From: Amoebophrya sp. A120
Taxonomy: Eukaryota > Protista > Dinoflagellata
Reading direction: 5' to 3'
DNA length: 64,000 nucleotides
NCBI GenBank assembly: GCA_905178155.1
Contig: CAJINV010000018.1
Location: forward strand, 662,609-726,608
Shown here: one piece after another, positions 2,894 to 61,200 of the stretch
Layout: the number at the start of each line of letters is the position of its first letter
How positions within the stretch are numbered: position 1 is the stretch's first letter
Translations under genes and position numbers: made by a program
The notes under the pieces: model-generated
Seen by the model: only the letters and a program-made list of their open reading frames with translations
The model's database searches: none
Told to the model about the DNA's origin: nothing

Positions 2894-5800
2894 CTACGCC
2901 TCCAGCTTCGAGTATGAAGAAGTCAAATGGGAGAGCGTCGCCAAGAACTTGGAAATACAAAGAAAGACCATGAACATGACCAACTGCCTCTGGCGCCTCA
3001 CAGCACGAAATCGATGTGAGTATCTTCATCATTTGTCAAATAGAAATACTGACTGTCGTACTTTATTTGCAGGTGAACAAGGACAAGCATCAGCATGCAC
3101 ATACAGTCAATTGGTCTGAAGAGCATTTCCATGCCGACGGTTCTCCCTCCGACTCTTCCATACCGGAACCAGCGCGGCAGTGTGGATGTGTCAGGTTTGA
3201 AATCGTCAAAGTTGAAATAGTTTGTCATGCATAAAACAGATACCAGTCGGAAGCCCACTTATCAAGCGCCGCATGACAAATTTTCCGAGCACCGGAATCC
3301 AATTTGTCATGCTGTTTGGGCACAGAAGACTGCTTTTGTCATGCTCTTTTAGCAGCTCTCTTTCAAACCCTAAATAGGCTCACAATCTGCCTCACTTGCC
3401 ATCCCGGCAAGACAGGCACTCCATGCCTTGCATTTTATGCATGACAAATCATTTCAACTTTGACGATTTCAATCCTGACGCTTCCATAGGCAGTGTGGCC
3501 GGCGTAGTAGTCGCAAGCCTATCCCGATGAAATGAGATAAATGCGTTGTTTTTCTTTCCACGTATGAAGATTTCTATGACTACGCAGCGAGCTTTTCATG
3601 CACGTGCTCAATAAACGACGTTCCTGAGACCACTCTTTCGTCTTTGCGTTGAATCGACACTAAACTTCTACCCTACAAGTACAAGCTCCGACATCGTACT
3701 CCTACTCATGCATCATGCGCATGATGTTGATCGATGACCACATAAAAAAGAATTGCAATTCCTTATTCCATTTTCATCAGGATAGGGTGTCCGGTGCCTT
3801 GATGTCGAAGGTTGTGAAGCTGTGTATAGCCGCTTCAACTCTGGAACATCAATCTGAATCTTATGATCTTTTTGTTTTGTATTTTTACCGAAGCAAGAAA
3901 AAGAATGTTTCGGTCTTGCATACAGGCCAAACAGGGTGGAAAAGCGTAAGCTACTTCTTCTGCAAGGAGCTTTGTATGCGTATCTAAGACTCGGTAGGAT
4001 TGACCATACTTCTTTCAGACAACTTGATACCCAAGGCAGAGATATCGTACTTGTGCAAGTTTCTTGTCATACTGAGAAGACGAGGACCCGTGAGTCGGGG
4101 TCGTCGGCACCACTTCTACCATCCACGACCACATCCGCTGATGAAATGGACCATTTCATCAGATTCAGACTGTTCCAGCTGAGCACGCCGTACTGTAGGA
4201 CGGGTATCCGCACTTTTGGATGTAGGGGACCTGGTGTTGTACTTCTTTGTTCCTCAGAATCAGACAACTACCTTCGATGTCGTTGTGCGTGTTTTCGAAT
4301 AATCTTCCCAGAAAAATTTGCATTTTTAGATCGACGAACAAGTTAGTAGAGCATCTTCTATCACGCTTCCTTCGTCGAAGATGTTGATCAAGTTGAAACA
4401 TAAAGATATTACACATGCAAAAACACATCAAACCTGCGTCTGTTCCCACAAATCCTCCCACTTTTCATGTCGCCCCTTCGATTATGCTACGAAACTCATC
4501 TTCTTGAAATGAGCAGGCTGCCAAGTCAAGACAATATAATACACAAAAAAATCGAGACAAAGTAAATTATAGCGAGGGCAAGTCCAATGCTGCGCCGATC
4601 TTTGGTCCACCTGCTGAAGCTTGACTTGTCTTGACACAAGCTGCACGTTGAACAGCCATCTTCAGGTGGCAGCACGACAAGGACCAGGAACTGATGGATC
4701 ATCATCATACATTCAAGTGGTATCTTACAAGTAACATCAAAGTGGTCGGTTTTCATCTTATGCTAAGAAAACAGCAGCTACGTCGTGTCTGAGAAGATTA
4801 ACTTGTTTCTTTCTATGTCGTATCAAAACTCCGATGCTGGTGAGGTTGCAGTAGGTCAGAATTCCGCCTGGCTTGAGCTTGGACTTGACCTTGCCGATGA
4901 ACTCGAATTGGTGCGCTATCAATCAGAAAAGCGTTTTCGTTACTAGCGGTGTTCTTTTCGCAGATTGCGGTCAGGTCGTGGCATAACTGATTCCATTTTC
5001 CTATCACGACGCAGCAGGCTGTGAATAAATGCAGGCTGCATCGTGCTGTAGATGGACTCTAGTTTTTGGTAATGGTTCTTTTGCTTTTGCATGCGTTTTT
5101 GCATCACAAATTCTGTTCGACGTTATTCAACCTCAGCGTGCACTTTTCTGTGTGATATGCGTGTGCTGCTCCTCGGCATTCAGCGGGTAGGGGTCATACC
5201 TAAATTGTGAATGTGTATGTGATTGAGTTCTTGTTCGCGACGAGGAGCATTAGTACATGCGCTTTTGAAATCTTCGGCAAAACCAAAAGAGCCTGAATGT
5301 TGCTACCATGGGTGAGGTCACGATACGCCGCAACATCAAGAACAAACAAAACAAATCAGTACAGCACTCCGTCCAGGTAGCCTTCGGGCAATTCCGCCAC
5401 TTTGTCTTGCCACAGAACGTATCAAGCGGAGACGTGGTTGTCGAGGCAGCAAGGTTCTTCTCAGGGAAACAATGCGTATCAAGGAAGAGAATAAGAACGT
5501 ACTTAGAACAAAGCGAGTGGTTTTCATGATCATCCTCGTCTTCCGATTGTTCGCAGCGCCAGCCTTTCGACCGAAAATCGTCTTCATCGTTGCATGCAGA
5601 TTTTCTTTCTTTCTTCTGGTTCTGCCTACCCCTACAAAAAAATCGAGCAAAAGGCATGATTCACGGTGCACATATTGCGACGACGTTGGTTCCGACAATT
5701 AAGCACATTTTATTTCCACTTTTTCCTGAAAGAACCGTCACCGTGCAACCCCCACAACTAGTTCTTTGCAGTGCGTAGTCCGTGCAAAAACGTTATCAAA

Positions 5801-7856
5801 TGCAAAAGTGTCTGAGTCTGGAAGAATGCATGTCTGTCATGCTTGTCTGGCATGACTCTTAAATCTGTCATGCACGTTGCCCACGAGCCTCACTTTTCTG
5901 TCATGCTGGGCCAGCAGCACTTGTGGCCTCATCATGATACGCCACCCAGCGTCACAAATTTCCAGACCCAGACACTTTTGCATTTGATAAACGTCACCTT
6001 GTGCGGTTTGTCCTTGGCCCACTCCTGTCCACGCTTGATGACGTCGGCGTTCGCCTCAATTATTATGTGCTCCTCGATGTCGCTATCCCTAGAAAAAAGA
6101 CAATCCCAGTCAGCCAATGTCATACATTTACCACGTTGTACTAAAACATCGAGTTGTAGTACTTGAGTCTGCAGCTTCTGCTTCTGCTTCTGTCTTCATG
6201 CAAAGCCAAATGTACGTGGGTGTAGTGAGTCATATTTTTCTCAGTGGATAGTCGTATCGCTGGACGGCAGAGGCAGAGAGACTGTAATATTTTTACGGTA
6301 ATTTTTTCTAATATCCATTTTCTTTACGTTTTATTTTCATTTTTCGTGTACAACTTACTTAAACCATTCTTTAATATCCACGCAGCGACGACATACAGTT
6401 TCATCCTTCTCCATCTCGTAGTGATTATCGCCACAACAACGGAGCTGCAAGGAAGTCGCTTTCTAACCTTTATTTCAAACTCAAAAAAAAAAAAAACGGA
6501 AAGAGTTGCGATTTGTCCTCTATCATTTCAGCAAATCGCAATCGTCCTTGTGTTAATTTGTACTATGATCGTGCACTGTGCTAACTTGTGCGGGAGGACG
6601 ACTCTCTACAAGTACTTTCTGAAAAAATAAGAAACGCATAGTTCATCTTACCCGAGTCCAAAGCCGACCTCGAGGACTTTTCCGCCCTTCTGTATCACAA
6701 GAAAAAGTGTTAACGTTAACGGAATTTGCGATGCAGGAATGCATCAGAAAAGGTGCCCAAATTTGTATTGCGTAGCATGTATGGAAGGCAAAATGTGTAA
6801 TGCATGACTGCCATCTGTGAAAACCGGTAACGTTAAGACTTTTTTGTTTGATATTCTGCGTGGCCACTTCCGCGAGTTTCTCCATGTACGGTTTTTCTTA
6901 TGACAGTGCACATTATAGCTCCCTCCCTCCCGGCTCATTTGTTGTAGAAGGGCATGAACAGCAGCAATTATAGAAACGCGAACGCTGCCAGCATGGAGTT
7001 TGTGCATGACAAGTTGCTACGCTGCAGACTGTTGAACCACTTGCCCTGTCCTCGGGATTTGTCATACGTACTGTAGAACGGCAACTGCTGAACTTGGGAT
7101 TTTGCATGACAAGTAAAAGCGAGAGGGGGAGTAGTTCTGCACCGGCATATTTCCCACTGCTCCATCACCGGATGTCCGTCGATGAAGAGCACCTCTTATG
7201 GACGTGCAAATCATATGTCTGGGTCTGGAACAAGATGATTGGGGGCGTTGGTCATGCAGCTTTTGCATTTTGATTTTTGCCCGCGATGTCGGTGATGCAT
7301 GCTCTCGTCGCAGTACAGGGTTCGCGGCGAAGAAGTTTGCCAATACCTATCCTACATGGGTGGAGATACCTTGTCCGGATGAAAAAAAATATAATAAACT
7401 GACAGCTTTTTTAGTAGTTGGTGCTCACGCGGCACTTGTACATGTTTCTGCATGATCGAACGTTAGAGTTACCATCACAAGGTCCATCCTTTTTCTTTAT
7501 CTTTCCAGACCCAGGCATATAATTTGCAGTGGATACCTCTCCTCTCCCATCCTCTTCGACGTGATAGTCGGCTTTCAGCCCATTCCAATCGCTATCCTGT
7601 GCAAAAGTCTCGCACTTCTCGTAGTACTTGTAATCGCATTCCTGCAAGACAAGTCTTAATCTCCTTTCGCTTTCCAAGCTATAGCTAAGTCACGTACCTC
7701 TTGCTTGTCATGGGCTACGTACAAGGAGAGCTCTATACTTCTGCAATTACTTCTAGTACCACGCACGAGAGACCACTTTGTTTGTCATTCATAGTCGGCG
7801 TGCTTGCTGTCTTCCTTGAGACCGTGGTACCCGGTTTCAGGAGCGGTGGCCACCAT
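2894..7856 (-). CDS. GAMT: Guanidinoacetate N-methyltransferase (GAMT/RMT2-type SAM methyltransferase), 17 exons, ~240 aa
   Basis: Removing 13 TIR elements (+5 nt each) and 3 GT-AG introns (6282-6651, 5200-5362, 4231-4433) gives MVATAPETG...DWNGLKADY...LFIDGHPVMEQWEKPYMEKLAEVATQKGGKVLEVGFGLGLSASAVQRYDIEEHIIIEANADV...HGLWQD...LDGVLYDPYPLNAEEQHTHQFEFI...LKPGGILTYCNLTSIGVL...QTQVPYIQKCG...PDTCDYY...LVPKLEA*. This is colinear with vertebrate GAMT motifs (PVMERWETPYM, GGRVLEVGFG, HWIIE, YDTYPL, HTHQF, LKPGGVLTYCNLTS). Confidence 0.93.
2913..3162. mobile_element. Degenerate TIR introner, last GAMT intron
   Basis: Ends tatgaagaagtc.../...gactcttccata; flanks tcgag/ccgga are diverged; removal +5 nt gives LVPKLEA*. 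Confidence 0.6.
3181..3488. mobile_element. TIR introner family A (GAMT intron)
   Basis: ~50-bp TIR tgtggatgtgtcaggtttgaaatcgtcaaagttgaaa / tttcaactttgacgatttcaatcctgacgcttccata; TSD ggcag/ggcag. Confidence 0.92.
3520..3784. mobile_element. TIR introner (GAMT intron), TSD fully diverged
   Basis: TIR tatcccgatgaaatg / cattttcatcaggata; flanks aagcc/gggtg; removal +5 nt restores PDT-CDYY. Confidence 0.8.
3825..4192. mobile_element. TIR introner (GAMT intron)
   Basis: Imperfect TIR tatagccgcttcaactctggaac... / ...gttccagctgagcacgccgta; TSD ctgtg/ctgta. Confidence 0.78.
4483..4822. mobile_element. Degenerate TIR introner (GAMT intron)
   Basis: TAT...GTA ends, weak TIR, flanks tcgat/tcaaa; removal +5 nt joins IGVL-KGRHEKWEDLW. 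Confidence 0.7.
4917..5157. mobile_element. TIR introner (GAMT intron)
   Basis: TIR tatcaatcagaaaagcg / cacttttctgtgtgata; TSD tgcgc/tgcgt; interrupts the HTH-QF motif. Confidence 0.87.
5420..5777. mobile_element. Degenerate TIR introner (GAMT intron)
   Basis: TAT...GTA ends; flanks gaacg/gtccg; interrupts HGL-WQD. Confidence 0.75.
5794..5989. mobile_element. TIR introner family D (GAMT intron)
   Basis: 30-bp TIR tatcaaatgcaaaagtgtctgagtctggaa / ttccagacccagacacttttgcatttgata; TSD aacgt/aacgt. Confidence 0.93.
6084..6250. mobile_element. TIR introner (GAMT intron)
   Basis: tatccctagaaaaa / tttttctcagtggata; TSD gtcgc/gtcgt; interrupts QRYD-IEEH. Confidence 0.82.
6693..6853. mobile_element. 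TIR introner (GAMT intron)
   Basis: TIR tatcacaagaaaaagtgttaacgtta / taacgttaagacttttttgtttgata; TSD ttctg/ttctg. Confidence 0.9.
6899..7149. mobile_element. TIR introner (GAMT intron)
   Basis: tatgacagtgca / tgcaccggcata; TSD tttct/tttcc; interrupts QWE-KPYM. Confidence 0.85.
7197..7535. mobile_element. TIR introner family D (GAMT intron; can be read GT-AG)
   Basis: TIR containing gtctgggtctggaa; TSD cctct/cctct. Confidence 0.9.
7593..7793. mobile_element. Degenerate family B-like introner (first GAMT intron)
   Basis: Left end tatcctgtgcaaaagtctcgcact, right end ...cattcata; flanks atcgc/gtcgg; joins KHAD-WNG. Confidence 0.75.
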
Positions 7857-9686
7857 CTTGTCACGTCGTGCTCGTGTTTATGATCTCACTGCAGTAGTAG
7901 AGCGCTGTAGAAATTGAATTCCTTTTTTCTCTCCTGAAAGAAGACAGACGAAGATGCTCGTCACATCATCAGCAGGCTGACCGCGGCGTAGCACAAAGCC
8001 TTCAAGCCGATGAGGTGGATAGCACTAGCTAGTAGTACAGAAGATGAACGAGAAAACAAGTAATAGTATATGCTCAATGCAGAATACTTGCTGGCAGGCT
8101 AGGCTCAGTCCTCGGGTGAAAACAAAGTAACTCCGAGGTTTATTAGGTTACAGAGACTGATAAATCTTCAATGTAGTGGATGTTGACTTTTATTAGCATT
8201 TCATTAGAGTTGTGCGTATATGATCTACAGCTACAGGAGTTTAAACATAATTAATCCCTCTCGCCCTCTGTCTCCACCCTCATCTAATGTTGTGGATAGT
8301 AACAGAGCCAGAGTCCCTCGTCACTCGCTTCTCTCTACTCTATGGAGGTTGTTGATGAGCTCGCAGAAACAAGCGAGGACTGCGAGTGCGCCTACAGATC
8401 ACGACATGCACAGGCTGCAGCAGGACAAGGAAAATCATGATGAGGTTCACTGCATGTGATTCTGATTCTGAACAACTGACAGCGCCAAAATAAGGAAAAA
8501 CGCAAAGACTGTAGAAAATATCGACGTCTGGTTCTTCACCTCCAAGCTCTTCGATTTCGTTGCATTTTTCCATGACATTATCTCTAGCAAGAGGCGCCTG
8601 GTGGTCCCCGCCCCATGCGGCTGCGGGCCACATTCATGCTAGTTGTGGAGGTAATAAACAAAGAAACGAACTGCTTTTGCAGCTCGGTGTTCTTGTTAAG
8701 AATAAACAGACTTGCAGCGAGGTCAAGAACCCCTCGTCGCTCGGTGTTGTCGTCGTTTTGAAATCTAAATCTTCGATATCTCCACTATGTCAAAATATTT
8801 TAGCCCTTAGTCGATTCTTGTCTACGTTGTTTCGTCGTTATTTCTCGTAGTTGGGTTTGCAAGAGAAGATGGAATAAATGCTTAAAATTACAAGCTTTTG
8901 CTTTTTACTGTAGAAAGAAATTATGTCCTCGCTCGCTACTAAATATTTGACTAGAATGAACGTGCTTTCGCTACTCGATTGAGATTCAAATGGGTCGGCG
9001 TCAAAAATTGAAAAAAGCAAAACCAAAATGAACAAAAATGAAAAATGCGTAATTGGTGTATCGTAATGTGTACCTGAATTGTGTAAAAATAAAATGTGAA
9101 TGTGTATGTAATACGGACAACAAAAGTGATCAAATTCAAATTGTGTATGATAGCGTTAAAGTAAGAATGTTATGGTAAATGTTAGAATCGTGATGGGAAA
9201 CAAGAAAAACTCCGAGCGCGGTGGGGGACCATTCACGGCCGAGGGCCACAATTTGATCGTCCACACTACAACTGGAGTACGAGGTGAACGGGTGACGGGG
9301 CGAGGCCCCATGGAATGTTGTTAGATGAGTCTACGTATAAAAAAGTTGTAGTGGTGTTGTAGTTGGACCACCGCGAATTCCTGCGCGCATACAAGCAGCG
9401 CAAGTGTTTGTCTTCGATTCGCACAGAATTATGACTTGTAGAAGATGATAAGAAGTAAACTGGCAGCAAAATAAAACAATTTATGTATGAACAAATAAAT
9501 CGAAGATAGTGCCGATCATACAACAGCTCCTTGGCCACACGGCACCTGGAAGCATCGCGTGCGAGGTGCGGCGGCGCGGACTGCAGAAAGTCACGAGGGA
9601 TATGTTTTTTTGCGATGTTGATTTCCTACTCCTAAGAACTGCCAGTAATGCAATCGCTATCGCAGCACGACCACTGCGCTTTGTAC

Positions 9687-12199
9687 TTATCCCGATGTGG
9701 AGGTTCCTGGCCGGAGCCCTTCGCCCCCGTGGTTGTCGATCTCGATCTGCTCATCGTCCTGCAGGATCATGGCGAAATTCCAATACCGCTGCAGCGTCGC
9801 CCTGACTCGAAACCAAACGCTCTGACGTATCATTTGTAAAAACGTCCCCACCCCAGAGTTGTCATGCAGATGTGCAATGACAGGAACAGTTGTAATGGGC
9901 ATCTCCATGAGAGGAATTTCTAGTCGTGTTTTGGCATTTGTAATGCTGCAACCAGGATAATCAGATGGATTTCTGATGCGTTTGCCCTTGCTAACCTGCA
10001 CTACACTACGGACTGCAACTTGTGATGCATGAGTCCCAAAAATTCCAGGTTTGTGTTGCAAAATCCCCATCTTGTTGACTATGGGGTGGGGACGATTCTA
10101 CTCAGGATATGACGTCCTGCGGTGCTGCTGGTCTCGCAACGCAGCAAGAACGCCTGCAACACAGTATGAAAGCCTCAGGTTGGAAATCCTCAAAGTGAAA
10201 ATAATTTGTAATGCAAAAAAACGACGCCAGTTGGAGCACCATTTATAGTCGGCGCATGACAAAAATTTCCCGGGCACTCAAAACGTGTTTGTCATGCTAG
10301 TTAGGCAAAGTGGTGCCCTTCTCTCATGCTAATCAGCAGCCCAATTCTGAACCCGTAGAAGCATCGTAGTCGGCCTCCAGTGCGTTCTCTGCAATACAGT
10401 CTTTTTGGTGTCGCATTTCATGCATCACAAATTATTGATAATCTGATTCGAACCGAAGCCAATTATTTCCACTTTGAGGATTTCCATTCTGAGGGTGTCA
10501 TACACAGCCTGCTCCTCGTCCTCGTTTTCGGTGTCGCTCGCGGCTCCGTACTCGTAGTGAGTCTCAGTCGGCGGGCCATTTGATGTTCCAGCAGTGGTCC
10601 TCAGGCCGTAGCGACGCAGCTGATCACCTTCTGCATGAAAATGGCCGGCGGCGGCGCCTCCGTGGGGTAGATGATGTTGCGACGCCGGATAACGCTCAAC
10701 AACATCTCCATGCAGATGATCATGCTGGGGATATCCTGTGCAAAAGTATCGCACTCGTACGCGTTTTTATGCATTATAAATGTCTTTACTAAAGCAAATC
10801 CGCATTACTACAAATTGAATTTGTAATGCTAAATGATTTTGTAATGCAATTTACACTAGTACGATACTTTTGCAGTTCATAGAGGAGCATCTTCACCAAC
10901 TCGACCGTACCGGCTGAACAGCAGCGCGCCTTCGTGTAGCGCGACGTTGCGGTCGTGAAGATGCTGAGCATCATAATATCCTCAGTAAAAACGTCCCCCT
11001 GTCAGAGCCAAGATGGGGATTTTGCAACACAAACCTTAGAAGTTTTGGTGGTCACGCATGACAAATTTCAACTCGTACGGTAGTGCAGGTTAGTGTGGAC
11101 AGCGACAGCCGCATTACAAACCCCTTTTATCTTCCTGTTTACAGCATTACAAATTTTAGAACATGATTGGAAATCATGCCTATGATGGATATGCGCATCA
11201 CAAATGTTCCTGTCATTGGAAATCAGCATGACAACTCCGGGGTCGTGGGGACGTCTTTACACAGGGTACATGAGGGGGACCTTCGTCGTCCGATATTTGC
11301 ACCAACGTTTGCTGTTCAGTTTCATCGGGCCCGCTTTGGCTTTGCTCCGGCAGCTCCAGCTGGAGGTGGTGCTGCAGCAATGAATCCCGCTTGTGCTCCT
11401 GGCGAAGATCTGTCTTTCCTTTTCGCGGCATCAGCGATGTCGACCCCGGCTCGTCCTCGGCAACATTGTTTATCATTCTGATCGGCAATAAATCATAAAG
11501 CGATTGACCTTGTTCGCTCTCCTGTCCCGTTCCGCATTCTTGTTGCGCTTCGGGATCAACCACGCGGAGTGGGTGCTGGAGAGCATGATTTTCGTCGCCG
11601 GTGTTTCTGGCGCCCCCGTCGAACAGCAGCCGTATTCTTGTCGGGTGAAAAAGTTTCGCGGCAAAGGAAAATCTGCGCGCTAGCACGGAGGTCCAGGCCG
11701 CCGGGGTCGCTTGCAGGTTCTGCAGTAATATGCAGAAAGATCCTGCTTCTTGTGTGGAAAAAGAAGGGTCTTCAGGATGATCTTCGGCCCGTCCTTGTCC
11801 TTCGCAAGTAGTTATGCCCAGCACAGCGTGTCCGTCTCCAGCTGTTGCGGCAGCGCAATCGCCAGGATTTGTCGCACCTTCGTCGTGTACTGTCAGCCCA
11901 GCCTCAGCATCATACTCATACTTGCTCCGTTCCAGTTGCAGTTGCACTCGCGCGCCCTGCATATCATACCCTTTTCCAGTTGTTTCGCCCCCTTCTTCCT
12001 CGGAACTAGACGTGGAAACGGAGTCCGCGCGGCGTCTTGCCCGGGGAAAATAATCGGTCCGGCCCTCGCCCTCCGCAGACGACGAATTTCTGCTGCCACA
12101 GGTAAAGAACTTGCTGCGGCAAGAATTATTTGAGCCAGCTCGGCGTCTTCTGTTCGGGCTGGCCCAACAGAAACACCGGAGAAAGATGAGGAAGGCCAA
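9687..12199 (-). CDS. Hypothetical protein, multi-exon, 5' end unresolved
   Basis: ORFs 11213-12199, 10425-10754 and 9687-10070 fuse into one stop-free frame (...EGPPHDAQH...EDAPQHDH...EEQAVLQAFLLRCE...GRQSVWFRVRATLQRYWNF...*) when four elements +5 nt are removed. Confidence 0.72.
9828..10109. mobile_element. TIR introner family C
   Basis: TIR tatcatttgtaaaaacgtccccacccc / ggggtggggacgattctactcaggata; TSD tgacg/tgacg. Confidence 0.9.
10165..10502. mobile_element. TIR introner family A
   Basis: TIR tatgaaagcctcaggttggaaatcctcaaagtg / cactttgaggatttccattctgagggtgtcata; TSD cacag/cacag. Confidence 0.92.
10732..10881. mobile_element. TIR introner family B
   Basis: TIR tatcctgtgcaaaagtatcgcact / agtacgatacttttgcagttcata; TSD gggga/gagga. 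Confidence 0.9.
10977..11268. mobile_element. TIR introner family C (opposite orientation to 9828-10109)
   Basis: TIR tatcctcagtaaaaacgtcccc / ggggacgtctttacacagggta; TSD cataa/catga; internal sequence is a reverse-complement homologue of the 9828 copy. Confidence 0.9.
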
Positions 12200-27100: not shown

Positions 27101-27462
27101 CGCTTGCTGGCCTGTTCTGCCTTTTCCTTGCTTCGAATTATTTGCGGGGGAATTTTTCTAGAGGAAGGCTTTTTTATTGCTCCAAGTTTCATCTCCATCA
27201 CCACCATGCGGTGGTCGCTGTGTGTGAGTGTGCCCTTGATCACTTTTAGTTTTTGAAAGAGGCCGCGATCTCGGTGGGATACGAGGAACCGGTCGTATTC
27301 CCTTTGTCGTCTTTCTTCGCTTGTCCACTTTCCGGTGAAAGTGAACCGCTCCCGCCACGGTTTTTTGTGCAAGCTGGAGAGGTCAACAAGCTGCCGCGCT
27401 GCTGCTAGCTCGTGCAGCCGCTGCTTGTTGTCTGACTCGACCACAAAGTCGCTAGTCAGGCC
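24117..27462 (-). mobile_element. 5'-truncated non-LTR retrotransposon (RTE-like LINE)
   Basis: 12-bp TSD gcatatcatcta (24105-24116 and 27463-27474); short (CAGT)n tail at the 3' end; single long RT ORF. Confidence 0.9.
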
Positions 27463-48630: not shown

Positions 48631-51600
48631 TAAATAGAAAGGCTTACTGAAGAAACATCAAAAAAAAATCAGTCGTAGTCGTAGTGAGTGGCCAGGAGTT
48701 GATGTCGTGTTCTTTCGTGTGTTTCAGCAATGCAAAATAAATGGCAGTGTGTGTGTGTCGTGTGTAAAAGGATTACATCTCATGGACGTCCTCGTAGGAG
48801 TCAAGACCTCCAAGAGGGTGTGTATGAATATACACGAACACAATTTCTCAAAAAGTACAAAAAAATTATTGCGCGATTTGACTCTGGTACTAAAAAGCGC
48901 TCGTGTCCGTGCTCGCCACACGACGCTCCTCGAGATGAGGTGCTGTGCCTTTTCATCATGACAAGGGGATCTACTCGCTCCTCCGACGCGGGGGCTATCA
49001 TGATCCTTGCACGAATGATCCCTGAAAAAAAACTCGGAGGTCCTCGAGAAGTGAAGATGATCTGGATCTACAAAAAGAGGCATCAAGTCGGTCATCGTAA
49101 TGCGTAGCACCAGTGTCGTGGTCAAACCTCCGATGTCTCATTCTCATTCACCTCATGGTCATTGCATACACATAGTTTGCACTTGTTGGAGATGCGCTGT
49201 TTGTTTTTAATATGCATTCATATATGCATTCATTTGTTCATCAGCGACACACCTGGGCTGCAACTCGTCAATGATTCTGAACAAGTAACTCTCGGTACAC
49301 GACGACCGGTGAAAAATTTGATCATGCCGTGCTGCGGCGACAAATGCTAGTGCTTGCATACAACTAGCGGTCAGGCAGATGGAACGGAAATGCTGCTCTA
49401 CTTCTTTTTCTTGTTTACGATCACAAAATCGCAAAAATAAGTGTACATTTGATGAAAGTGATTTGGCTTATTAGGTTCTTGTTCGTTTTGTAAATAAATT
49501 TGTTTCTCCTCGCATAATCAGTTGTTGTAAATACCGGAGGTCGTGGCCAGCATTGCGGGCTTTAGTTGACACGCACACGATCCTATGTAAAAAAGCGTTC
49601 CCATGAGTTCTTGCCAGAATTGTCCTCAGGCATATTTGCATGCTCATGCTTTGTCTCATGCGAAGCAGCCTCTTCAGTTCTAGGAGCATTTTTTTTCTTA
49701 TGCCGTGGGACTTTGTCAACATCATGCTGTATTAAGTGGCATAGGCATACAATGGAGCTGCTAGGTTTCGGTTTGTGATGTGCCACTACCACTAGCCTTC
49801 AACCAGCACGACAATACAACTATCTAGAGCAGACCCAAACATGTAAGTTATGCCCGACAACTAGTAAACCTTGTTGACCACTCGCGCACTATGCAAAATT
49901 TACTTGGCTCTGGAGAGTTCGTTGGGGACCTCGTTTTTACACAAGATATGACGTGTTGGTCCTGTATTATGTCATCGTCGACGACAGAGAGGCCACGTTT
50001 CATCTTCAGCATCGCAAGCAAAAAGTGTCTCAGTCTCAACTTGTTGTAAAAAAGCGCAACTTTCTACAGACCGTTTTTTGTCATGCTCGAGGTCAAGATA
50101 GATGCAACTGCACGAAAGTCGGCTGCTATATGCGATCTGCCTTCTCGTGTCCGAGGACGCATCACAAGTTTTCCGTGGCATGTTGAGCAAATCATTTGTA
50201 TTGCTGGTTCTGATACAAAGGTCTGTTGAGACTGAGACTGTTTATTTTTCTGGTGATATTATTCATCTTCCGGGTAGAGTAAATATACGAGGATTCGGAG
50301 CCTTTATCTATGCCAAACGAAAACTCCTGGCTGAGTTTTAGTGAAAGTATGTACATCAGAGATATGACGCGCTCAGATGTTACAATCTCAAGCGTTGCAA
50401 CAGAGTGGGGAGTCATTTGTCTTGCTCTTGCATAGCGGTTCAGCACTAGAAATACATACGCAGAGCGTTGCGCTTTTTGCAAAACAAATTTCGGCGAGTT
50501 CTAATGCAGTTGGGGACTCCAGCAGAACTTCAGCTAGTACTTGTCATGATACTATATAGCCATGCGTATATCTGTTCTAGCATGAGCGTGAGCTTTTTGC
50601 TTCTGCATAGGGACGACCATGGTGCCTACTCATTGTAACGCTTGAGACTGTAACACCTGAGCAGCTGTATAAAAAATGAATCATGTTGCTAACAATGACG
50701 AATCAAAATAAATCATGGACTACAGCAGCATGGTGGCCAAGGAAGGTGCTGACACACACCACCGTGCTGATGGTCTTGGTTTCATCTCTCCATAATGCGG
50801 ACATCAATTCTACTTGTTGTAATATCTTCGGGTATACTTGTTCTAATATCTGTATCTGCTTCCACTATCAGTCTTTCCCATGGCTGCATTGCAACCGATA
50901 CAGCTATCCCGGAAAAGAAAACTCGCCAACCATGGCCATTTTCTATGACAAAGAACTCGTCAGGCTTGATTGATTCCGATGGATTCGAGCCACCAAACCA
51001 TGGCATAGTAAAGTGCCAACGTTTGCAACCGCAATGTGTATGTGACAACGAAAAGGCAAAGGAAGGCACCTACTGCTGGTGCAATGTGAAATAAAAAAGC
51101 GCATGTAGCTAACTACTTAGGTGCCGGACGGGGAGGTGATAGCGTTAGGGCCATTGGCGTTCTCTTGCCCCGGGCTGGCCGCCCAGGGCCGAAAAAGTGA
51201 GCAACTAAGTCACGCACCAGCCCCGAGCGCATAGTCATAGTGCATAGGATGCGGCCCGGAGGCTCTCCGCTGTGTTTATTTTGCTTTCAACACGGATACC
51301 AGGGCCACCACTAAGAAACGGCCGCAGGCTAATGCGTCGGAACGGCACCCGAGGTCTGTGCTGTTTGGCCTGTCGTGTTCCGCTTTCTCATCTCCGGGGC
51401 CTTTGCGCCCTGCTCGTGCCTGCTGGATATATCTCGCCAGACAACGGCAAAACGACACAAAAAGAAATTTTCGCTTTGACAATCACAATTTTCCTAAATT
51501 TGCTTGGAAAGACTCGCGCGGCCGCGGGTATGGGCCCGGCCCGGGCAACGCGGGAGGCACCGAAATTATTTGGGACTATGACTATACCATGCGGGCAGTT

Positions 51601-52319
51601 GGCCTCTTCATCATTTGGCTGGCGCTTTTTTGTCTTGTGCGTCCTACAACTGTTCCGCGTCCTCGCCTGCGCGAACTACCTTCCGCCCAGGCTTCGGCAG
51701 CCGCCGAAAACGCGGCCATCTTTTTTGTCACGGGAAAATCGCAGTCGCGCCAGCGCACTACCTCGCTGCTTTTATCTCGTGCGTGGCTTTTTTGGGCACA
51801 CTTTTGGGCGCCCGAAAATCGCCAGAACCTAAGGAGCAGGCGGCGGGCGGCCGCTCAGAAGGTGCGCCGGTTTTGCCTCTTTGTGGCCACCCCTTCGCCT
51901 CAGAAGGTGGACACCAGGTCAACTAAAACAAGGCGAAAAGGACCAGCCGCCAATTGCTAGAATGCGAAACGAATCGCCGCAATCGCTGTCGCATCCACTC
52001 CAACTCACATCATTAAAAATAGTTGAGCGGTAGACTGGACGTAAGTAGCGCGCACTTTTTAGTTGTAGAGGCGACATCATTTTCAAAAGGGCAGACACAC
52101 TGACAGCACTTTTTTGAATTTGTTCGTCTAAAAATGCCTTCGCTCGCTACGGCTACTGGGAAGTACTTTTACTTTCTTAGTTACTGTTGCTTCTACACGA
52201 AGTAGAGTTCCCGCACGATAGATAGTAGGTGAAGCAGTTTTCTCCTCCGGGATAGGCAGATGATGGCTTTTGTTTCCGGGAGATGACACCAGCATCGATA
52301 TAATTGTGGATAGATCTTG

Positions 52320-52631
52320 TATGGGAGTGTCAGGTTTGAAATCGACAAAGTTGAAATAATTTGTCATGCTTGCATAAAATGGATGCCAGTTAGACCTGCA
52401 GTTTGTAGTCGGTGCATGACAAATTTTCCCGGTCCTGGAAGCGGGTCTGTCATGCGGTTTAGGGCAAAAGAGCGGCCTTCTCTCATGCTAGTCACCGGCC
52501 CAACTTTTGACCCTTACCAGGACTATAATCTGCCTCCCTTGCGTCCTCTGCAATAGAGTCACTTTTTGCATCGCATTTTATGCATTGCAAGTTATTTCAA
52601 CTTTGTCGATTTCAACTCTGACACATCCATA
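52320..52631. mobile_element. TIR introner family A
   Basis: tatgggagtgtcaggtttgaaatcgacaaagttgaaataa / ttatttcaactttgtcgatttcaactctgacacatccata; TSD tcttg/tcctg; host gene not resolved. Confidence 0.9.
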
Positions 52632-52648
52632 TCCTGCTGATGTCGTTG

Positions 52649-52994
52649 TATCAAGTGCAAACCTCTCTCCGGTCTGGAAGGATGCGACAAAGCTGCTCAT
52701 GCTCAGCTAGAATGGCGCCATCTATCAGGTCGTCTGTCATGCACGCTCTTGTTATCCAAGAGCGGTCTTCATCATCTTTTTCTATTACGCTGGAAAAATA
52801 ACTATGGAGGAGGTTGTAATGGAGACATAGAAAACGCATGGTAGTTCATCAAAAACTTGTCCACATGCTTAGCCGCTAGTGGTGGCGTGCTCATATCAAC
52901 ATTGACATTCTCCAACCACCGCTAGCAATGCAAGTAACAGTAAAGTATTTTCAATTTCATCTTCCAGACCCAGACATCATAAGTGCGTTTGATA
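52649..52994. mobile_element. TIR introner family D
   Basis: tatcaagtgc...ggtctggaag / cttccagacccagac...gcgtttgata; TSD cgttg/cgtcg. Confidence 0.8.
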
Positions 52995-55202
52995 CGTCGT
53001 GGATTTATGCAGATGCAAAATGAATTGTCGGTGTCAGGGTTTGGGTTTGCCGGGCTTGTCGAGAAAGAGAAGCCATGGATGCCGTGTCGGAAAAAAGAAC
53101 ACGTAAATCAAGGGTCTAATTCTACTAACTTGTTCCTCTTGTGGCGTCGAGGTCGACATGGTCAAGAAGGATCGATTTTTATGCTTTTTCATATCAGATG
53201 AAAACAGATCCAGAACTCTGTAGCAATTTTCTAGTGTCCGTGCTTCGCAACGGACACAGAGTCACGGTTATTTGCATTTGTTTGTAGACGCCAGAATTCT
53301 GCAGATGCAGAAGGACGGCTTGCATATGCATGTTGCACCAGCAGCTTCAAAAATATCACGATGCAAACCACGCATGCATCTTCCAGGTAGCACATATTTT
53401 TCCTATGTATTAGTAGCACCCTGATACTAGTAGTACAAGTAAGATGGTCACACGACCACAATCGGGTGCTGTGCGCATGACAAAGACAAACGGCTAAACA
53501 GCAATGACTGAGAATAGGATCCATGGTTTTCTTTTCCCGGCGACTCTGACACGAGACAAAATCATCTTTCTTCAGACTGGATAGGCTTTGTCCCGTCACG
53601 AAATGAAATCAAAAAAATGGCATAGTACGGTATAACCTGCTCAGGTGTTACAATCTGCTCAAACGGTAGCAACAGAGTAATGCTAATGCTGTGCCGCAAA
53701 AATAAGTGCATCTGCATCATCTAGCACAGGATTGCGCATGACAAGTTCCGAAGCTGCCCGTTCAGATGAATCTGGCGAATGGAGAGAAAGTCCGTTTAAA
53801 TGAAAAAAAGGATTGCGCATATACAATACAGCCCGTGCTTGCGGATAAAGCTGGCGAAATTTGTACCTATTTTTCATGCGAAAAGCGCAAGGCATCCTTC
53901 CATGTAGTTGTTCCGCATGCTCTCTATGCAAGACAAATTATACAGACTCTGTTTTATTATTGTAATGCTTGAGATGGTAACACTTGTGCGGGTCATATAC
54001 GAGTTGTGTTGAGATGTGCTGCTCGAGTTGTTGAGTAAAAGAAAAGTGTGATTTTTTGCTTCAGGAATATGCGATATCCAAGGAAAAAACTGCGATAGTG
54101 CACCTGCTTTGGTGAGAACGAGAAGAGCATCTATTTGACCTACTGCCAGTCTCTTCTTTTTCTTCACATGCGAATGTGACTTCTGTGACACTTTACAACA
54201 CATTCATGCATCAAGGTAGGTTTAATGTCAATACCACGACGGACAAATTGAAATTGGCATGTACGTTGGCCGCTGTATTAATACGAATACAAATTTGCTT
54301 GCACCACTGCCGTGTGTTTGAATATGCAAGAAGGCTCTCTTGCTCATGTTGTTCTACACCCAGTTACACTTCCACCGTTAGATGATTTCCGTGGATACCA
54401 TGGTGCACAGCTCCCCCTTGACCCTCTCGTTTGTCGTGTTCATTACATTGGCAGGCACGAAGTGTAGATCATCAAATAGACTCAGTAGAACAGAATTGCG
54501 GTGAGAAGTGTAAAATAAATAGCTACACATGAGCCTATTGCTCATAAACTGACGCATAACAAAAGCAAAACAAAGCGGAGGAGTATTCGTCTCTTCCTCT
54601 TGCATACATTTCGATTTTCATACATTAGTTTGCTCTAGTTGCATGACAAAGACAATAAACTGGAGCAGTGAAGAACAAAGGGGGGTGGTGCACTTGGATA
54701 GATAGAAGTTCTTGCATTTGATTTTGATGTGAAGAATGGAAACGGCGTCGAGAACTACCCATCTCGCGCTTGCACTTGCCCCCGCATAGCTCTTGATGCC
54801 GTCGAGCAGGATATTATGGATAAAACAGGAGGCAAGAGCCGCGTGATCTTGTTCGCTAGAAAAACTATAAAAAATCTGTTGAGTTGTGATGCTTGTGAAC
54901 ATATAATCTTGTTTATCAATCTTCTTCTGCTATAATTGCATAGTATTTTGGAATAAGTATAGTGTTGAAATGTGAAAAAGAAAATGGGTTTGGTCTTGAT
55001 AATTTTTGCTTGAATACGATAACGATTTTTTGGCTTGATCAACGATATGCAGTTTCAAAAATTGAAATAAGCACTTCGCGGAAAAAAAAATGTGATGATA
55101 GACCCAGCTGCAGCTCGTGGACCAGTTTTGTGTTGATGGAAATTATCAGTTGGCACCGCCCCCAGTCGCTGCAGTCAGGAGCTGGCGACGATCCTTTTCT
55201 CG

Positions 55203-58200
55203 TCACTCCGCCTGGTTAACCACTCCGCTCTGACTGGAACCCATCGCGCCGCTACCGCCGCCGTCCCCTCGGTTGCTGCGGCTGGCCTTGTCTGGGTTTT
55301 TCGCGATTGGGTCGGTCTTTTTGATCTTCTCCAACCGTCGGTAGACTTCGGTGCTGCCGTATGCAAGAAATGAACTGTGTATAGAAGTTGCGTAACAAAT
55401 CGATCCTGTAGTAAAAAATATATATGCTTCTATATTGAGCAATTCATGCAACAGAGACACACTTGTTGTCCTGCCGTGCTGGCCAGCAGCTCTGGGATCC
55501 TCTTTACATTTTGATTTTGCTTCCACGTTGTACTAGCTGACAGGCTGAAGATTAGATATCATGCGGAACAAGTTCTTTGTGATGCTGCTCTGCTTCTAAG
55601 AAACCTGCGGTAACTACACTGTTTTTCTCGTTGGATATGCTGGGACGGACTTCCTGGTCGAAGCTGAAGCACTGGCCGTGTATACATTGCAAAAGTATCC
55701 TATCGTACTAGTATAAATTGCATTACAAATTTTATCAGAAAGAATTTGTAATGCTAATTCAGGTAAAAAGGTAGGTTTGTCATGCAAGATTGGAATTAGT
55801 ACGAGTACGATAGTTTTGCACAGGATACCGTGTCCTGAGCAACAACGTCCCTACCCCGCCTTGTCATACATATTTGCATGGCGAGGACATCTGTAACGCG
55901 GCTTCGCATGATGAATGGTGCTTTCTAGTGAGTCGCCGTATTTGAAAATCCTTCTGTCTTCATGCGCTAATGCTAAAGCTAACCAGGATAGAAATAAAGT
56001 GGATCATTTATTGTCATAATGCCCTTACTAGACAGGCTAGGCACGAGGACTGTAAAAAAACTTACATCTTCGCCAAACTAACTCCTAAAGCTCTGGAACT
56101 GGAGTTGTCTTGCAGGGTTTTCCTTTCTAGTTTTGCCTCTCTTGCCTGCGGGAGCGGATTATTACTAGTACAAGTACTACCCTTTCGCTATTTACGAGAT
56201 TTGTGTTGCAGAGGTCCCATCATCTTGAATGATGACGCGGGAGTAGGGACGTTTTTCCTCAGGGTAGGCCGTATGGATGTGTCAGGATTGAAATCGACAA
56301 AGTTGAAATAACTTGCAATGCATAAAATGAATGAAAGCTGAGACCCAGTTTTCAAGTGGCGCATGACAAATTTAGGTAGAGCCGGAATCCAGTTTGTCAT
56401 GCTGTTTGCGTAAGAAAGACGCCTTTTGTCATGCTACTTTAGCATCTCAGTTTCTACCCGTCGAGAGGCTTACAATCTGCCTCACTTGCCTACTCTGCAA
56501 GACAGGCACTTTCTGCGTTGCATTTTATGCATGACAAACTATTTCAACTTTGAGCATTTCAAACCTGACGCTTCCATAAGCCGATCAGCGTCTTTACTGC
56601 CTGGATTTCGATGTGATCCGGTGTGGACGGTGGTCGTTTCTGCACGGTCATTATCAAGTGCAAACGTGTCTGGGTCGTCTGGAAGATTCCGAGATTTGTC
56701 ACGCGGTTTTTCCAAGGTCCACCAAGTCTGGAATGCAGGCCCTAGCATCACCGGTAGTTCTGCAGCCCTTTGGTGATGCCTATTCTGCATGACCACAGGA
56801 GATGCCCTCTCAGCATGGCCAGAAGTGGGGACCTTTTGCAAGTCATGCAACACAGATTTTTCTAGCATCTGCAACACGCATCACAAGTTCGCATCCTTCC
56901 AGACACAGACCACACATTCGCAGCATTTGATAGTCATTATGTTCGTTAGCGTCGGCATATCCTTGACACCGTCATAGGGGATCGTGCCGCCAAATATCTC
57001 CGAGTATCGTGAGAAAAAAGTGTCACAGTTACTACTTACATATTGTGAACCGGTTTCAACATCAACATGACGGAAATGCTTGCTGCAAGCCACCTCGCTT
57101 CCTGCGTCTTTTTTTCGCTTCATGACAACGATCTCTAACTCTACGTTGCAGTTTTTTTCTTTGGTCCTGCTGAAGTTGCACCATGCGTACTAACTGTCAC
57201 ACTTTTTTTCTTGAATACACAGAAGATACCTGATGGTCAATAAATTGATCGTGTTCCGACATTGCATTCACCATCGTGCACGACAAAATGAAAAACAAAG
57301 CCCTTAAAAATCCACAATGTCTGCTATCCTTTTTTCACCATGACTACGTGTGCGTGTCGTTCAAGAAAACTTCTACCCGTTTCAAAGTCATCTACTCCTG
57401 GCACTTCTAGTTTTCTTTTACACTATCTAGCCAAAGACGATGATGAAATTACAAATATTATGTACATGACATCGCCCAGACGTCGATTTTTTCTGTGATC
57501 TTGAGCTTCTTATCGAAGAGTTCCGGAGCCATATATCGGGGTGATCCGCCGTTATGCCTTGCCCGCGCGTTGTTTTTGTCGATGTACCTTTGATGGTGTT
57601 CTATGCATCGCAAACAGGTGCAATTGGGTCAGGGTCTGGAAATTAATAATTTGTGTGGCTGATATCAAATTAGAAGCACTGCAATCTTCAAGGACGCAGA
57701 GCAGCTACCGCTCGCACAGAAAACTAGCAGGAGCAGAAGTCTTTCATCAATCTGCATCACAGCTCTTTGGGCTGATGGCCTTCAGATTGTGCATGACAAA
57801 CGACCCAGAGCCAGTAGACAAATTACAATGCATATGTTCAACATGGTGGGGGCAATGTCAAAAATCATGCTCCAGGTCGTGGAGGTTCCAGCCTCTATGA
57901 GAGTGCACAACGGAGCGAGCCGCTTCCCCTCCCCGTCATGTGTATGGCATGCAGAGCTACAGCTAGAAAACAACCCTAACGAACAGCACTGAGGTAGCTG
58001 TGCGCTTTGCAGTCCAGACACGGAGCGCAGTGCGCTCTGCAGTGGCTTCTGTAGGTCGTCCATAGTCTCAGGAAAGAAAGTCATAGTCACAAGGCGAAGG
58101 CAACGGCACAAGCGAAAAAAAAATATCTCTGGCGCATAGCATGCGGATTGGCTCTCCACGTCCTCTGCCGTGCTTTTTCTTTTTTGCGTTTTTCTTTTTA

Positions 58201-61200
58201 CTTTTCGCGTCTGCACTTTTTGCAAAACTTCCTCGGCTCAGAAACCGGCGAAAAAGTGGCCGCTATTACGGTCGCCCAAAATGCTCCGAAACCTCGGCCG
58301 CGCCGTGCGATTTGGCTGTTTCAATTTCGGGCGCGTTTTTTTGGGCGCCTATTTGGGCGACTCAAATCGTCACCAGAATCCCACACGGCGGACGCCTTAG
58401 AAGGGCGCCGCCCTTGCTGGCGCCCCAGCGTCGTTTTATGAAGCGGGGACCGATAGCCATAGCGTCCCCCCCGCCGCGATTTGTCGCCAAAAAAGCCGAA
58501 CAGGCTTGGGCTTGCGCGCTGGGATTTTCTTCATCCTGAGAGACGCTCTTACTTACTTTAGGCTTGCAAACTGCCGGCCATTTTTGGCCATTGATGTCAA
58601 GAAAACTCCCCGGCTATCGAACCGTTCGGTGACCTCGCTGCCTGCTATGATTGATGCATCTTCTCATGCAAAAATCTGTGATCAGGATGCATGCGCATCA
58701 ACACAAAAAGTACTAGCACTAATTTTTGCTGTTACAACACATCTTCAGAGCTGCGTGCTGCAGATTCCTCGCACGCCCCGTTCATCATCTTCTGGAGAAT
58801 ATCACTTTATAGGACGAAATTGAAGCTAAAGGATAGTACTCTGTCAAGCCGAAGTCGCACAGCTTTATGTTGAACTTCAGGTCGAGGACGACATTCAGGC
58901 TCTTCAGGTATCAACTGCAAATATGTAGTCTGGCTCAGGGACAGGGTCTGGACGAACTAGAAATGAGTATAAGCTGTAACTGTATTAAAATGTCGTCCTG
59001 TGAAATAAATTGATGCTCGCACGACTGCAAAAATACGAATACATACAGGGCCAAGCATGACAAGTTACTTTCAGAGCTCCTTGGACATGGTGTATCCTTT
59101 TCCGAATCATGACAAGAAACCAACTGCGTTTCTTGTTTTGCATGCCAAGCTAGAGTAGAGGCTCCTTTCCTGCGTGCCCATGCATCACAGAAGCAGGGGG
59201 CATGACAAAAAATCATGCGTTCTTCCAGCAGACCCAGACATGATATTATTTGCAGTTGATACCAGGTCGCGGTGTACCACAACTGGGTCCCGCGTGTGAA
59301 GATACTCGACGCCCTCGCACAGCTGTAGGAGAAAATACGTCCTTGGTCTTTTTCTCTAGTACTACATTGGAGCAGAAGCAGGTCCTGGCATAGGTGACTT
59401 CCGTCCTACTCGTTACATTACTAAACTCAATTTTCATCTGCAGCTGCACCTGCAGAGCGTACTACTACACTCATGCAGATTCTTGTCATGCGCGACGGAG
59501 TGCAATCTTTAAAAAATGTCGAAGAACTACAGCCGCATGGACATGGTGCAGGAGGGAACACCTTATATCTATTCCGTACTACTCATCTGTACCTGCATGC
59601 TCATGTTCATCGAGTGTCTGGTCGGCAGCTTGACCTTCCGCACGTGGAGGAAATTGTAGAGCGAGCCTGAAAGTAAAGAACATGCATTGCAACACCAAGT
59701 GTCTTTTTGTCATGCTAGAAAGCCAAGAGTGGCGGTGTTGTATGACAACCAACGTGACGAGGAGCATCAAATTCCTCTATCATGCGCATGACAAACCAAA
59801 AAGGAAAAACGTTTTTTTTTCTTTGAAAATGAAATCTCCTGAGATCATCAACAGAAAAATTTCATATTGAACTACTGTAGTACCGTTCGGCATGTATTCT
59901 GTGATAAAGCAGAGATGCGGGTGCTCGAAGCAGGCTCCCAGAAATCGCACAAGCCTCTTGTGGTTCAGGTGTCGAAAGGATTCGATCTCCTTTTTGAGTT
60001 CGTTTATCGCGTGGGAGTCGTGCTGCGCTTTCTGCGGGTCACGGTATCGGATTGCAAAACTCCCACCTGCCCTTATTTCTTGGGGTGCATGAAGAACTAC
60101 AGCAACGCAAGTAGTGTCACAATAAATCCGGCTTTCACATGACGAATCCATACACAATAAACTTCTGTATTTTAGTGCAGTTTTTCTTTGAGCTTCGTGA
60201 TGAACTTCGACTGCTAATCATGCAAGACATGCAAAGGACGAGTGGAGGACGGGACTTGGTATACAAGAACTGCAGCACAAACAATACATGAGGGAGACGG
60301 GGAGTTGTGTACTCTCCTACCCGGTACAGTGCTTTTATCGCTACCTCCTGTCCTTTCCACTTGCCCTTAAAAACCTTGATAATTTTATTGATATAGGTAA
60401 AGCTGCATTTCATAGCAACATGAACATACAACGCGTGCGACCAAAACCATTACAAAATTTTCAGGTTGACAACATATTGAAATTCCTTTTCGCATGAAAA
60501 ACCTCGACAGATGAAAGGCGTTTTTTCGAAGAAAAACTCGCAGTCTTCGTACTAGCAGTAAGTATGAAAGTACACAACTCCCCCTCCCCCTCTCTGAGCA
60601 GATGAAACACAAGCGAAAATGGCGGATGAGAATGAAATGCAGCTTTTGCGTGACAAACTCGCAGCCGGCCACTCAAGTGCTGTTTTGGCCGCTTCATGCG
60701 CAAACTGTCATGCAAGCAGTGGTAAGAGAAAATGAAAGAGGGTATTTTGCATGATAAAGAAAGGGGTCGGGGTGGAGGTGTTGTTCACTCTCATAAATAC
60801 GGCATTCTCTTACCTGTCCAAATTCCCCGTTCCCGAGTGTCTGATCTACATTGAGGTCTGCCCATTCGATTTCGGGAATGTCGCCGGCTACGCTTCTTCG
60901 CCCATTTGGTATTGCGCCCTTGATCCCACCGCCACCTTGGTTGTGCATTTGATTGTTATTGTTTCCTGCGTTGCTCATGCCACCTGGTGCCCCGTTTGCT
61001 GGCCCATTTTGCCACAGTCTTGGCGTCGCGATCTCGGGGTAGGGCACGGACAACTGTCGCGCCACCATGTTTGGCCCCGCCGCTGCAGGTCCGGCGCCCG
61101 CCGTCCCTACAGGGTTATTTATCTGCTGCACTGCAGGGTTATTTGCGTTACTGTAGTAGTCGTGTGGCTTGCTGCCGTGGTACTGTGGGTTTTGTCCATC

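Follow-up and report, generated by a model that had tools for sequence, protein, structure and literature searches.

Transposon-derived introns of Amoebophrya sp. A120 are removed at a fixed offset, one base before and four bases after their terminal inverted repeats

The closest systems described so far are the non-canonical introns of the Amoebophrya strains A25 and A120, which make up more than 60% of the introns of both and whose splicing mechanism has been described as unknown, and the nonconventional introns of Euglena. For Amoebophrya, the published text (Farhat 2021, PMC7789003) gives no clear splicing signature and a cut that is variable or unknown relative to the hairpin, with repeats 1-5 nt from the splice sites. 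In Euglena, as described (PMC12501133, PMC11282704), the introns are probably derived from miniature inverted-repeat transposable elements (MITEs), have terminal inverted repeats (TIRs) near their ends, lack GT-AG borders and are cut at fixed spacers from a terminal motif. In this work we have investigated a window of 64,000 nucleotides of Amoebophrya sp. A120 (contig CAJINV010000018.1, positions 662,609 to 726,608; GC content about 0.49), whose co-oriented genes have short exons interrupted by elements of 150-380 nt. Each element starts with TAT, ends with ATA and is flanked on both sides by 5-nt direct repeats, the target-site duplication (TSD); the element coordinates given in an earlier note on this DNA match the sequence. 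The termini are imperfect TIRs, consisting of TAT, about seven looser bases and then at least three A. TIRs, a TSD of fixed length, high copy number (a depth of about 10^5 vs 26 for single-copy DNA) and insertion in both orientations are all MITE-like traits; the TSDs of opposite-orientation pairs within one family are mostly perfect. An Rfam scan of the window gave no match, and one protein search returned no homologue. The published A120 introners, as described (PMC7789003), are likewise about 150-380 nt long, have TAT-starting inverted repeats ending in a run of A, form families and lie alongside canonical introns. Their other hallmarks are present here too, namely repeated families, non-GT-AG ends, removal from transcripts and, with the 5-nt TSD, direct repeats of 3-5 nt spanning the exon-intron borders. 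The window introns very probably belong to this same system; the introns themselves have already been published, and given Euglena the idea of a ruler is not new.

The cut lies at a fixed offset, one nucleotide before the 5' TIR and four nucleotides after the 3' TIR. In the transcript contigs, all 29 joints that could be placed have lost exactly the element plus 5 nt. These contigs come from runs X1-X4 of one sample, whose RNA status is assumed and not on record; we treated them as RNA because canonical GT-AG introns are joined in them and a poly(T) end is present. Positions 46500-64000 were compared with runs X1, X4, X8 and X9 (15 of 30 joints listed) and positions 2900-14700 with X1, X2, X3 and X5 (15 of 143 joints listed, three of them X5 joins between repeat copies). 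Reads of X8 and X9, the two raw-read runs, mapped only to repeat copies (90-95% identity) and not to the 46500-64000 locus, and 12356-14700, which contains the element at 13834, had no RNA coverage in the contig runs used. Of the 29 junctions, 18 were fixed from joints, 3 from inserted letters, 5 from loose ends and 3 from piece coordinates. If the register k is defined as the number of upstream TSD bases kept in exon 1, k=4 fits 29/29 joints, k=3 and k=5 fit 22 each, k=2 fits 18, k=1 fits 15 and k=0 fits 9; a cut after base 3 and a cut after base 5 are each excluded by seven joints, and the mirror-image register 1 is excluded in 14 of the 29 and required in none. Perfect TSDs make seven of the joints uninformative on the register, while the cuts at 3520, 49579 and 50905 fix it exactly, as does that at 62839, from piece coordinates. 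Had each intron taken a random register from 0 to 5, the chance of all of them giving the observed product would be about 10^-6.8. All listed non-canonical RNA joints are accounted for by element removal, and the geometry is unchanged in the element-derived introns (at least nine) of the 3' untranslated region (UTR) of a kinase gene, where no reading frame is under selection.

The earlier note had placed the junction at about this position from the letters alone, and its protein-based reasoning is borne out by the contigs. Base 5 does come from the downstream copy, giving HRDLK at 58909, PDTC at 3520 (cut exactly after base 4) and LIGQ at 56272, and bases 1-3 come from the upstream copy, giving HGL at 5420 and GVL at 4483. 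It had left the cut after base 3 or base 4; only base 4 survives. The registers across mismatched TSDs, which it had proposed to read from cDNA, are non-random and all fit 4.

Could such joints arise during library preparation or in the genome itself? Reverse-transcriptase template switches or assembly artefacts over hairpins, or a join guided by the direct repeat, deserve mention, since a hairpin with a direct repeat is the classic setting for them, the contig runs are only guessed to be RNA, and the label 'between: not known' stands on most joints. We regard this as very improbable. Exact joints are present where the flanks match at just 0-1 of 5 bases (3520, 49579 and 50905), and the direct repeat is not used for choosing the joint; a single register is common to 29/29, the joined frames are open over 245 and 278 amino acids (aa), and the element joints lie on the same contigs as canonical GT-AG joints. 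Excision at the DNA level, with transcripts made from excised templates, is suggested by the resemblance of these TA-bounded TIR elements, in what is probably an alveolate, to the internal eliminated sequences of ciliates, and it is largely refuted. The DNA run X5, possibly the window's own source, holds the elements and the first gene in long, unbroken single-copy pieces with 0 of the 12 listed RNA joints, and removal therefore takes place at the RNA level. Moreover, elements lie in both orientations, yet the mirror register is never required, and a partly spliced intermediate exists.

The borders, which look random when they are listed, follow one pattern in the correct register. With +1 and -1 as the first and last intron bases, all 38 RNA-supported introns (the 29 junctions, six from piece coordinates and three rebuilt from nested elements) start with N-T-A, as the earlier note had it. 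The +1 base itself is free (G13 A11 C10 T4), and 27 different pairs of terminal dinucleotides occur among the 38. A GT or GC start together with a terminal AG, the mark of U2-type introns, is thus not the rule here, whereas the U+2 and A+3 of the donor are present in 38/38. GT-AG ends occur in one element intron of 38; 13 introns start with GT and just one of these ends in AG. In four GT-start introns the dominant contig skips an AG lying 1-3 nt past the cut, including the GTAC...CAG at 3825, and among 290 related elements 20 would end in AG vs 21 expected. A 3' AG rule is absent. This agrees with the arbitrary 3' ends reported earlier, although one of the examples then given, TCCC at 10732, has no joint among those listed. 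Two copies had been named as exact GT-AG introns; the one at 7197 has RNA support, and that at 47796, for which no joint is listed, would be GT-AG just if its gene lay on the plus strand.

Three bases are present in every one of the 38 introns, T+2, A+3 and A-7, whereas their TIR partners vary (A-5 in 35/38, T-6 in 36/38 and T+4 in 32/38). Breaks occur in all three terminal pairs, with A+3 and A-7 spared; the asymmetry between the ends gives a Fisher p of 0.002, or 0.008 after merging one related pair. The earlier note had seen decayed ACA and AGA termini at the transcript 3' side, and they are present there at 3181, 55831 and, without RNA, 35898; it had overlooked the reverse pattern at the third TIR base, where A-7 is kept. 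For replication, 99 loci (375,800 bases) were fetched with the end of one family, the three terminal bases being unscored in detection. The 360 hits were reduced to 303 with at most one change from TAT over both ends and with duplicates removed, and to 290 after the strand call; the codon model used for orientation placed 24 of 28 window elements on the minus strand, a test that included some of the genes it had been trained on. Of 35 RNA-supported window elements the detector recovered 13, out of 26 hits in all, and it is therefore biased toward young copies. Changes at the 5' vs the 3' end numbered 1 vs 9 at the second TIR base, 7 vs 1 at the third and 4 vs 2 at the first; a looser scan (306 elements) gave 1 vs 9, 11 vs 2 and 4 vs 4, and zero hits on 62,758 shuffled bases. 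A sense-strand mutation bias was rejected as the cause, interior substitutions being 308/10,690 for T vs 313/10,852 for A. A+3 and A-7 are therefore under sense-strand constraint; T+2 is so less clearly. The claim that the 5' TA is always kept holds in the window and fails in the related elements, where the +2 T is changed in four and the +3 A in one. Two exceptions to the +2 T rule, at L050 2335-2603 and L067 5409-5662, have a well-supported strand and a 5' end GAT after G, which would give a GG donor. Two exceptions to the asymmetry, at L001 1359-1507 and 2873-3123, lie in one locus with a weak strand call, and both would fit if that call is wrong.

Two apparent exceptions to the 1/4 rule resolve as nested elements. 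At 54064-54701 an inner element (54075-54397) lies inside the 3' TIR of an outer one (54396-54700); the joint ends 11 nt past the best hairpin, and once the inner element is taken out by the 1/4 rule the outer 3' end is whole again and obeys the rule. At 55675-56579 three elements are stacked, 56272-56578, 55831-56266 (3' terminus ACA) and 55681-55827, the last inserted into the 3' end of the element before it in this list. Taken for one intron, the joint would end 6 nt past the last element, and stepwise removal restores the rule. Contigs of X1 and X4 span just the middle element with 27-29 bases on either side; they retain it as a partly spliced intermediate, as expected for stepwise removal, the order of removal being our reconstruction.

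More questions are raised by what measures this distance. The earlier note had the 5' site read as sequence with a free +1 and the 3' cut set at a fixed distance, and both hold; the TIR stem as the anchor of that distance is partly supported. In such a stem ruler the TIR hairpin would hold the ends and the cuts would fall 1 and 4 nt from its base, with a spliceosome branching elsewhere or with a separate, Euglena-like machinery releasing circles. A strong end-to-end duplex is indeed predicted in most introns (z < -3 in about three quarters), a knock-in in Euglena showed that a paired CAG/CTG core is used there, the spacers being fixed at 3 and 5-6 nt (PMC12501133), end profiles alone often miss the true site, and the stemless 5420 intron has retained-intron contigs. 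The nested elements need the outer 3' TIR to be rebuilt, which fits a ruler on the stem and one on A-7 alike. However, four of the 36 folded introns (4483, 5420, 7593 and 55360; the rebuilt middle element 55831 was excluded from folding counts) have a terminal pair probability of at most 0.05, yet lose exactly the element plus 5 nt. The terminal pairs also break asymmetrically: relative to the family consensus, G.U pairs number 1 and A.C pairs 10 at TIR positions 1-3, and the G.U excess in the inner stem, positions 4-20, is not significant (46 vs 36, p=0.32). Finally, a stem offers no reason for the preference at +1 and -1 described below. We consider this reading possible, though rather unlikely; the stem may still help in site choice. 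The same geometry would follow from a ruler with A-7 as its anchor, which fits the data better and is the more likely of the two.

We hypothesize, with a probability of about 0.5, that the machinery is a relaxed spliceosome for which A-7 is the branch point, with the cut 7 nt downstream of it. U1 was found in neither A25 nor A120; it is reported in the Karlodinium strain, which like AT5 has canonical introns. The TIR hairpin may assist in bringing the ends together but would have to open before branching. The spliceosome would then read N|UA at the 5' end, with +1 free, and branch at the conserved adenosine 7 nt before the 3' cut, which is supplied by the element's ATA end; the 3' site would simply be the seventh base after A-7, with no AG needed. 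We infer all three parts, the spliceosome as the machinery, A-7 as the branch point and the counted 3' site. With TAT...ATA at its ends, an element supplies U+2, A+3 and A-7 in either insertion orientation, and the 1+4 split gives back exactly one TSD copy. In its fullest form, to which we give slightly less than even odds, the proposal is of a spliceosome without need for GT or AG that reads N|UA, branches at the element's ATA adenosine and ligates exactly 7 nt downstream, so that any TAT...ATA element with a 5-bp duplication, in either orientation and even inside the end of another, would be an instant and precise intron.

The following observations point to a spliceosome. The canonical donors of the same genes (GTAC 5, GTAA 2, GTTT 1) share GTA with the N-T-A element starts in 7/8 cases. 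In addition, an excess of G-G and A-C as the first and last bases was predicted before counting, from spliceosomal 3' site docking; the P-complex structure is described as accommodating these pairs (10.1101/212811). At +1/-1 they occur in 68 of 290 related elements vs 41.9 expected (p=5e-5; mirror control 41), namely in 35/130 and 33/160 of the two strand classes, and in 10 of the 38 window introns (p=0.04), and of 12 positions compared, register 4 gives the highest count. Alternatively, a protein dedicated to this task, such as a TIR-binding protein that has been domesticated and works with a ligase, would read both ends as sequence, cut at fixed offsets and join the exons without a branch. 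It would suit the information at each end (about 10-11 bits in the profiles of the 38 introns), the neglect of nearby AGs even after GT donors and the report that U1 was not found in either strain (PMC7789003), but would leave both the spliceosome-type +1/-1 preference and the TA common with canonical donors unexplained, and A120 is reported in the same text to retain U2, U4, U5, U6 and nearly all spliceosomal proteins. We think it improbable.

Several points weigh against a relaxed spliceosome branching at A-7. In naked RNA A-7 is predicted to be paired with +4 in 25 of the 36 folded introns, there is no U2-like consensus around it (position -9: T15 G13 C9 A1), and A at -7 or -8 in the canonical introns (6/8) is not clearly above chance. 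The excess of G-G and A-C is modest, since the looser scan has 62/306 against 50 for register 2, and its p rises to 0.009 against the worst codon phase; codon phase as the sole cause was rejected as insufficient, though it lowers the significance. The +2 T, changed in 4/290, shows no stronger conservation than the mirror base (changes 4 vs 2; looser scan 4 vs 4), and variant ends are perhaps inherited within subfamilies, so that the counts are not fully independent. End profiles alone put the true site first in just 24/38 (5') and 26/38 (3') introns, and sequence alone may be insufficient for site choice. Lastly, the RNA evidence consists wholly of contigs, from one sample and from minus-strand genes, and contigs hide minor junctions.

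The features are collected in Table 1. The gene at 2800..7900 has a frame of 245 aa that is open after the RNA joints, and its product is one which we take, from its motifs, to be guanidinoacetate methyltransferase-like; a Pfam search of a partial exon gave no match. In the kinase gene the corresponding frame is 278 aa. The 3' UTR of the latter (49379-55200, minus strand) is about 1.2 kb when spliced, with at least nine element introns and exons down to 6-12 nt; its flanks are more decayed than those of coding exons, and it holds no frame longer than 99 aa. One of its elements, 50905-52254, is 1350 nt long with a GC-rich interior and plus-strand stop-free frames of 239 and 194 aa.

Table 1. 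Host genes, element introns and canonical introns of the window (element limits in brackets)
Feature	Position	Strand	Remarks
Host gene	2800..7900	-	245-aa frame open after RNA joints
Host transcript, protein kinase	49379..63641	-	one exon matches Pfam PF07714; stop near 55200, then spliced 3' UTR to a loose end with poly(T), 49379
Element intron (2913-3162)	2909..3163	-	GT..CG; register 2-4; AG 3 nt beyond unused; loose end
Element intron (3181-3488)	3177..3489	-	perfect TSD; 3' terminus decayed to ACA
Element intron (3520-3784)	3516..3785	-	CT..CT; register exactly 4; flanks 1/5 alike; joint 3515>3786
Element intron (3825-4192)	3821..4193	-	GTAC start; CAG ending 1 nt past cut unused; joint 3819>4193
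Element intron (4483-4822)	4479..4823	-	register 3-5; no predicted terminal stem
Element intron (4917-5157)	4913..5158	-	RNA contigs
Element intron (5420-5777)	5416..5778	-	unmatched ends; no terminal stem; register 4-5; also retained-intron contigs
Element intron (5794-5989)	5790..5990	-	20/20 terminal pairs; very high copy family
Element intron (6084-6250)	6080..6251	-	RNA contigs
Element intron (6693-6853)	6689..6854	-	RNA contigs
Element intron (6899-7149)	6895..7150	-	RNA contigs
Element intron (7197-7535)	7193..7536	-	GT-AG at register 4
Element intron (7593-7793)	7589..7794	-	register 1-4; no predicted terminal stem
Elements 9828-10109, 10165-10502, 10732-10881, 10977-11268	9824..11269	-	weakly covered gene; 10732 without listed RNA joint
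Element intron, 3' UTR	49575..49949	-	AT..GT; exact; terminal A of 3' TIR lost; no in-register direct repeat; joint 49574>49950
Element intron, 3' UTR	50006..50259	-	3' terminus ATG; register 3-5
Element intron, 3' UTR	50359..50672	-	TT..TC; register 4-5
Element intron, 1355 nt, 3' UTR	50901..52255	-	CT..TG; register exactly 4; flanks 0/5 alike; joint 50900>52256
Four element introns (52320-52631, 52649-52994, 53006-53583, 53631-53997)	52316..53998	-	exons between of 6-42 nt; joints and loose ends
Nested element pair	54064..54701	-	joint 54063>54702
Element intron (55360-55637)	55356..55638	-	register 2-5; no predicted terminal stem
Three stacked elements	55675..56579	-	joint 55674>56580; pieces 55828-56267
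Element introns (56652-56932, 57005-57217)	56648..57218	-	first: perfect TSD; second: GT..CG, register 4-5, AG 3 nt beyond unused
Element intron (58909-59261)	58905..59262	-	in kinase HRD motif; GT..TG; register at most 4; joint 58904>59263
Element intron (60045-60319)	60041..60320	-	GT..GT; 5' terminus TAG; register 4-5
Element introns (61210-61359, 61714-62004, 62416-62720, 62839-63024)	61206..63025	-	61714: 3' ATG, register 3-4; 62839: register 4 (piece coordinates)
Eight canonical GT-AG introns	4231-4433, 5200-5362, 6282-6651, 57230-57465, 57588-58839, 59323-59592, 59667-59883, 60377-60813	-	same genes

Some further observations concern the elements and the rest of the window. The canonical introns 57588-58839 and 60377-60813 enclose the TIR elements 57602-57834 and 60563-60795, respectively. 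Inside the element at 2913-3162 a plus-strand stretch, 3017-3072, looks like a textbook intron (GT, branch motif, CAG) antisense to the host gene and is possibly a captured gene fragment. The motif GCAT[GCT]ACAA has 59 copies in the window, 50 of them inside elements and without strand bias, and is possibly a binding site for a transposase or for chromatin. The internal motif GCATGAC was rejected as a branch site, its strand counts of 269 vs 275 showing no bias. A long minus-strand frame at about 24640-27420 has the look of a reverse transcriptase of the LINE (long interspersed nuclear element) kind, as judged by eye alone. The stretches at about 41200-41950 and 42060-42840 form a diverged tandem duplicate with one element copy per unit (41668 and 42518), and 44900-46310 holds palindromic and tandem repeat arrays with units of 40-130 nt.

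The fixed 1/4 register turns seemingly random borders into one rule that can be used to correct gene models, and three positions, A+3, A-7 and the +1/-1 pair, offer a testable way of telling a relaxed spliceosome from a Euglena-like machinery. If branching at A-7 is true, it would show how far the spliceosome can shed its most conserved signals, and why a single transposon class could fill a genome with introns without much cost.

How does this geometry compare with what has been described? Against the variable cut of the published A120 text (PMC7789003), we find a single 1/4 register together with A+3, A-7 and a preference at +1/-1. In Table S4 of that study, the top nine A120 motifs are all NT-NN and the top nine A25 motifs all TT-NN with a TTA repeat, which would give both strains a T at +2 and an A at +3, as the 1/4 rule predicts. 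We did not find the 1/4 register or A-7 stated in the literature searched, which covered few subscription journals, and Figures 3 and S19-S25 of Farhat et al. may show the mode. The Euglena introns, as described in the sources cited above, differ in their CAG/CTG core, their spacers of 3 and 5-6 nt, the purine that starts exon 2 and their circular products. The introns of this window have spacers of 1 and 4 nt and lack that core, a purine begins exon 2 in just 22/38 cases, and conservation falls on two adenosines that do not pair with each other; in terms of the euglenid signature N3-CDG...CH'G-N5-6|R, positions +4 to +6 read T-C/G-x and the 3' spacer is 4. The introns of Fritillaria borealis are closer in machinery, being described as TIR transposon introners with TSDs that are removed by a modified U2 spliceosome (PMC11282704, bioRxiv 2025.08.15.670264), and they indicate that a U2 spliceosome is able to adapt to TIR-derived ends. 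There AG-AC and AG-AT borders dominate, so that a pattern persists in the terminal dinucleotides, whereas here a random target site supplies +1, -1 and -2. Fixed spacings between branch and 3' site are reported for Yarrowia, Candida guilliermondii, Trichomonas and Giardia (PMC2483917), with the branch adenosine 6-8 nt from the 3' end by our own count. Yarrowia, Trichomonas and Giardia resemble the present introns in this spacing and in having no polypyrimidine tract after the branch; they differ in a strong ACTAAC-type branch motif and a terminal AG, neither of which is found here, where A-7 is a candidate branch point. Finally, in the stwintrons of fungi, as they are described, an inner intron interrupts a splice signal of the outer one and would have to leave first. 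The nested elements of this window follow the same logic, but what is interrupted in them is the 3' TIR end of an intron derived from a transposon.

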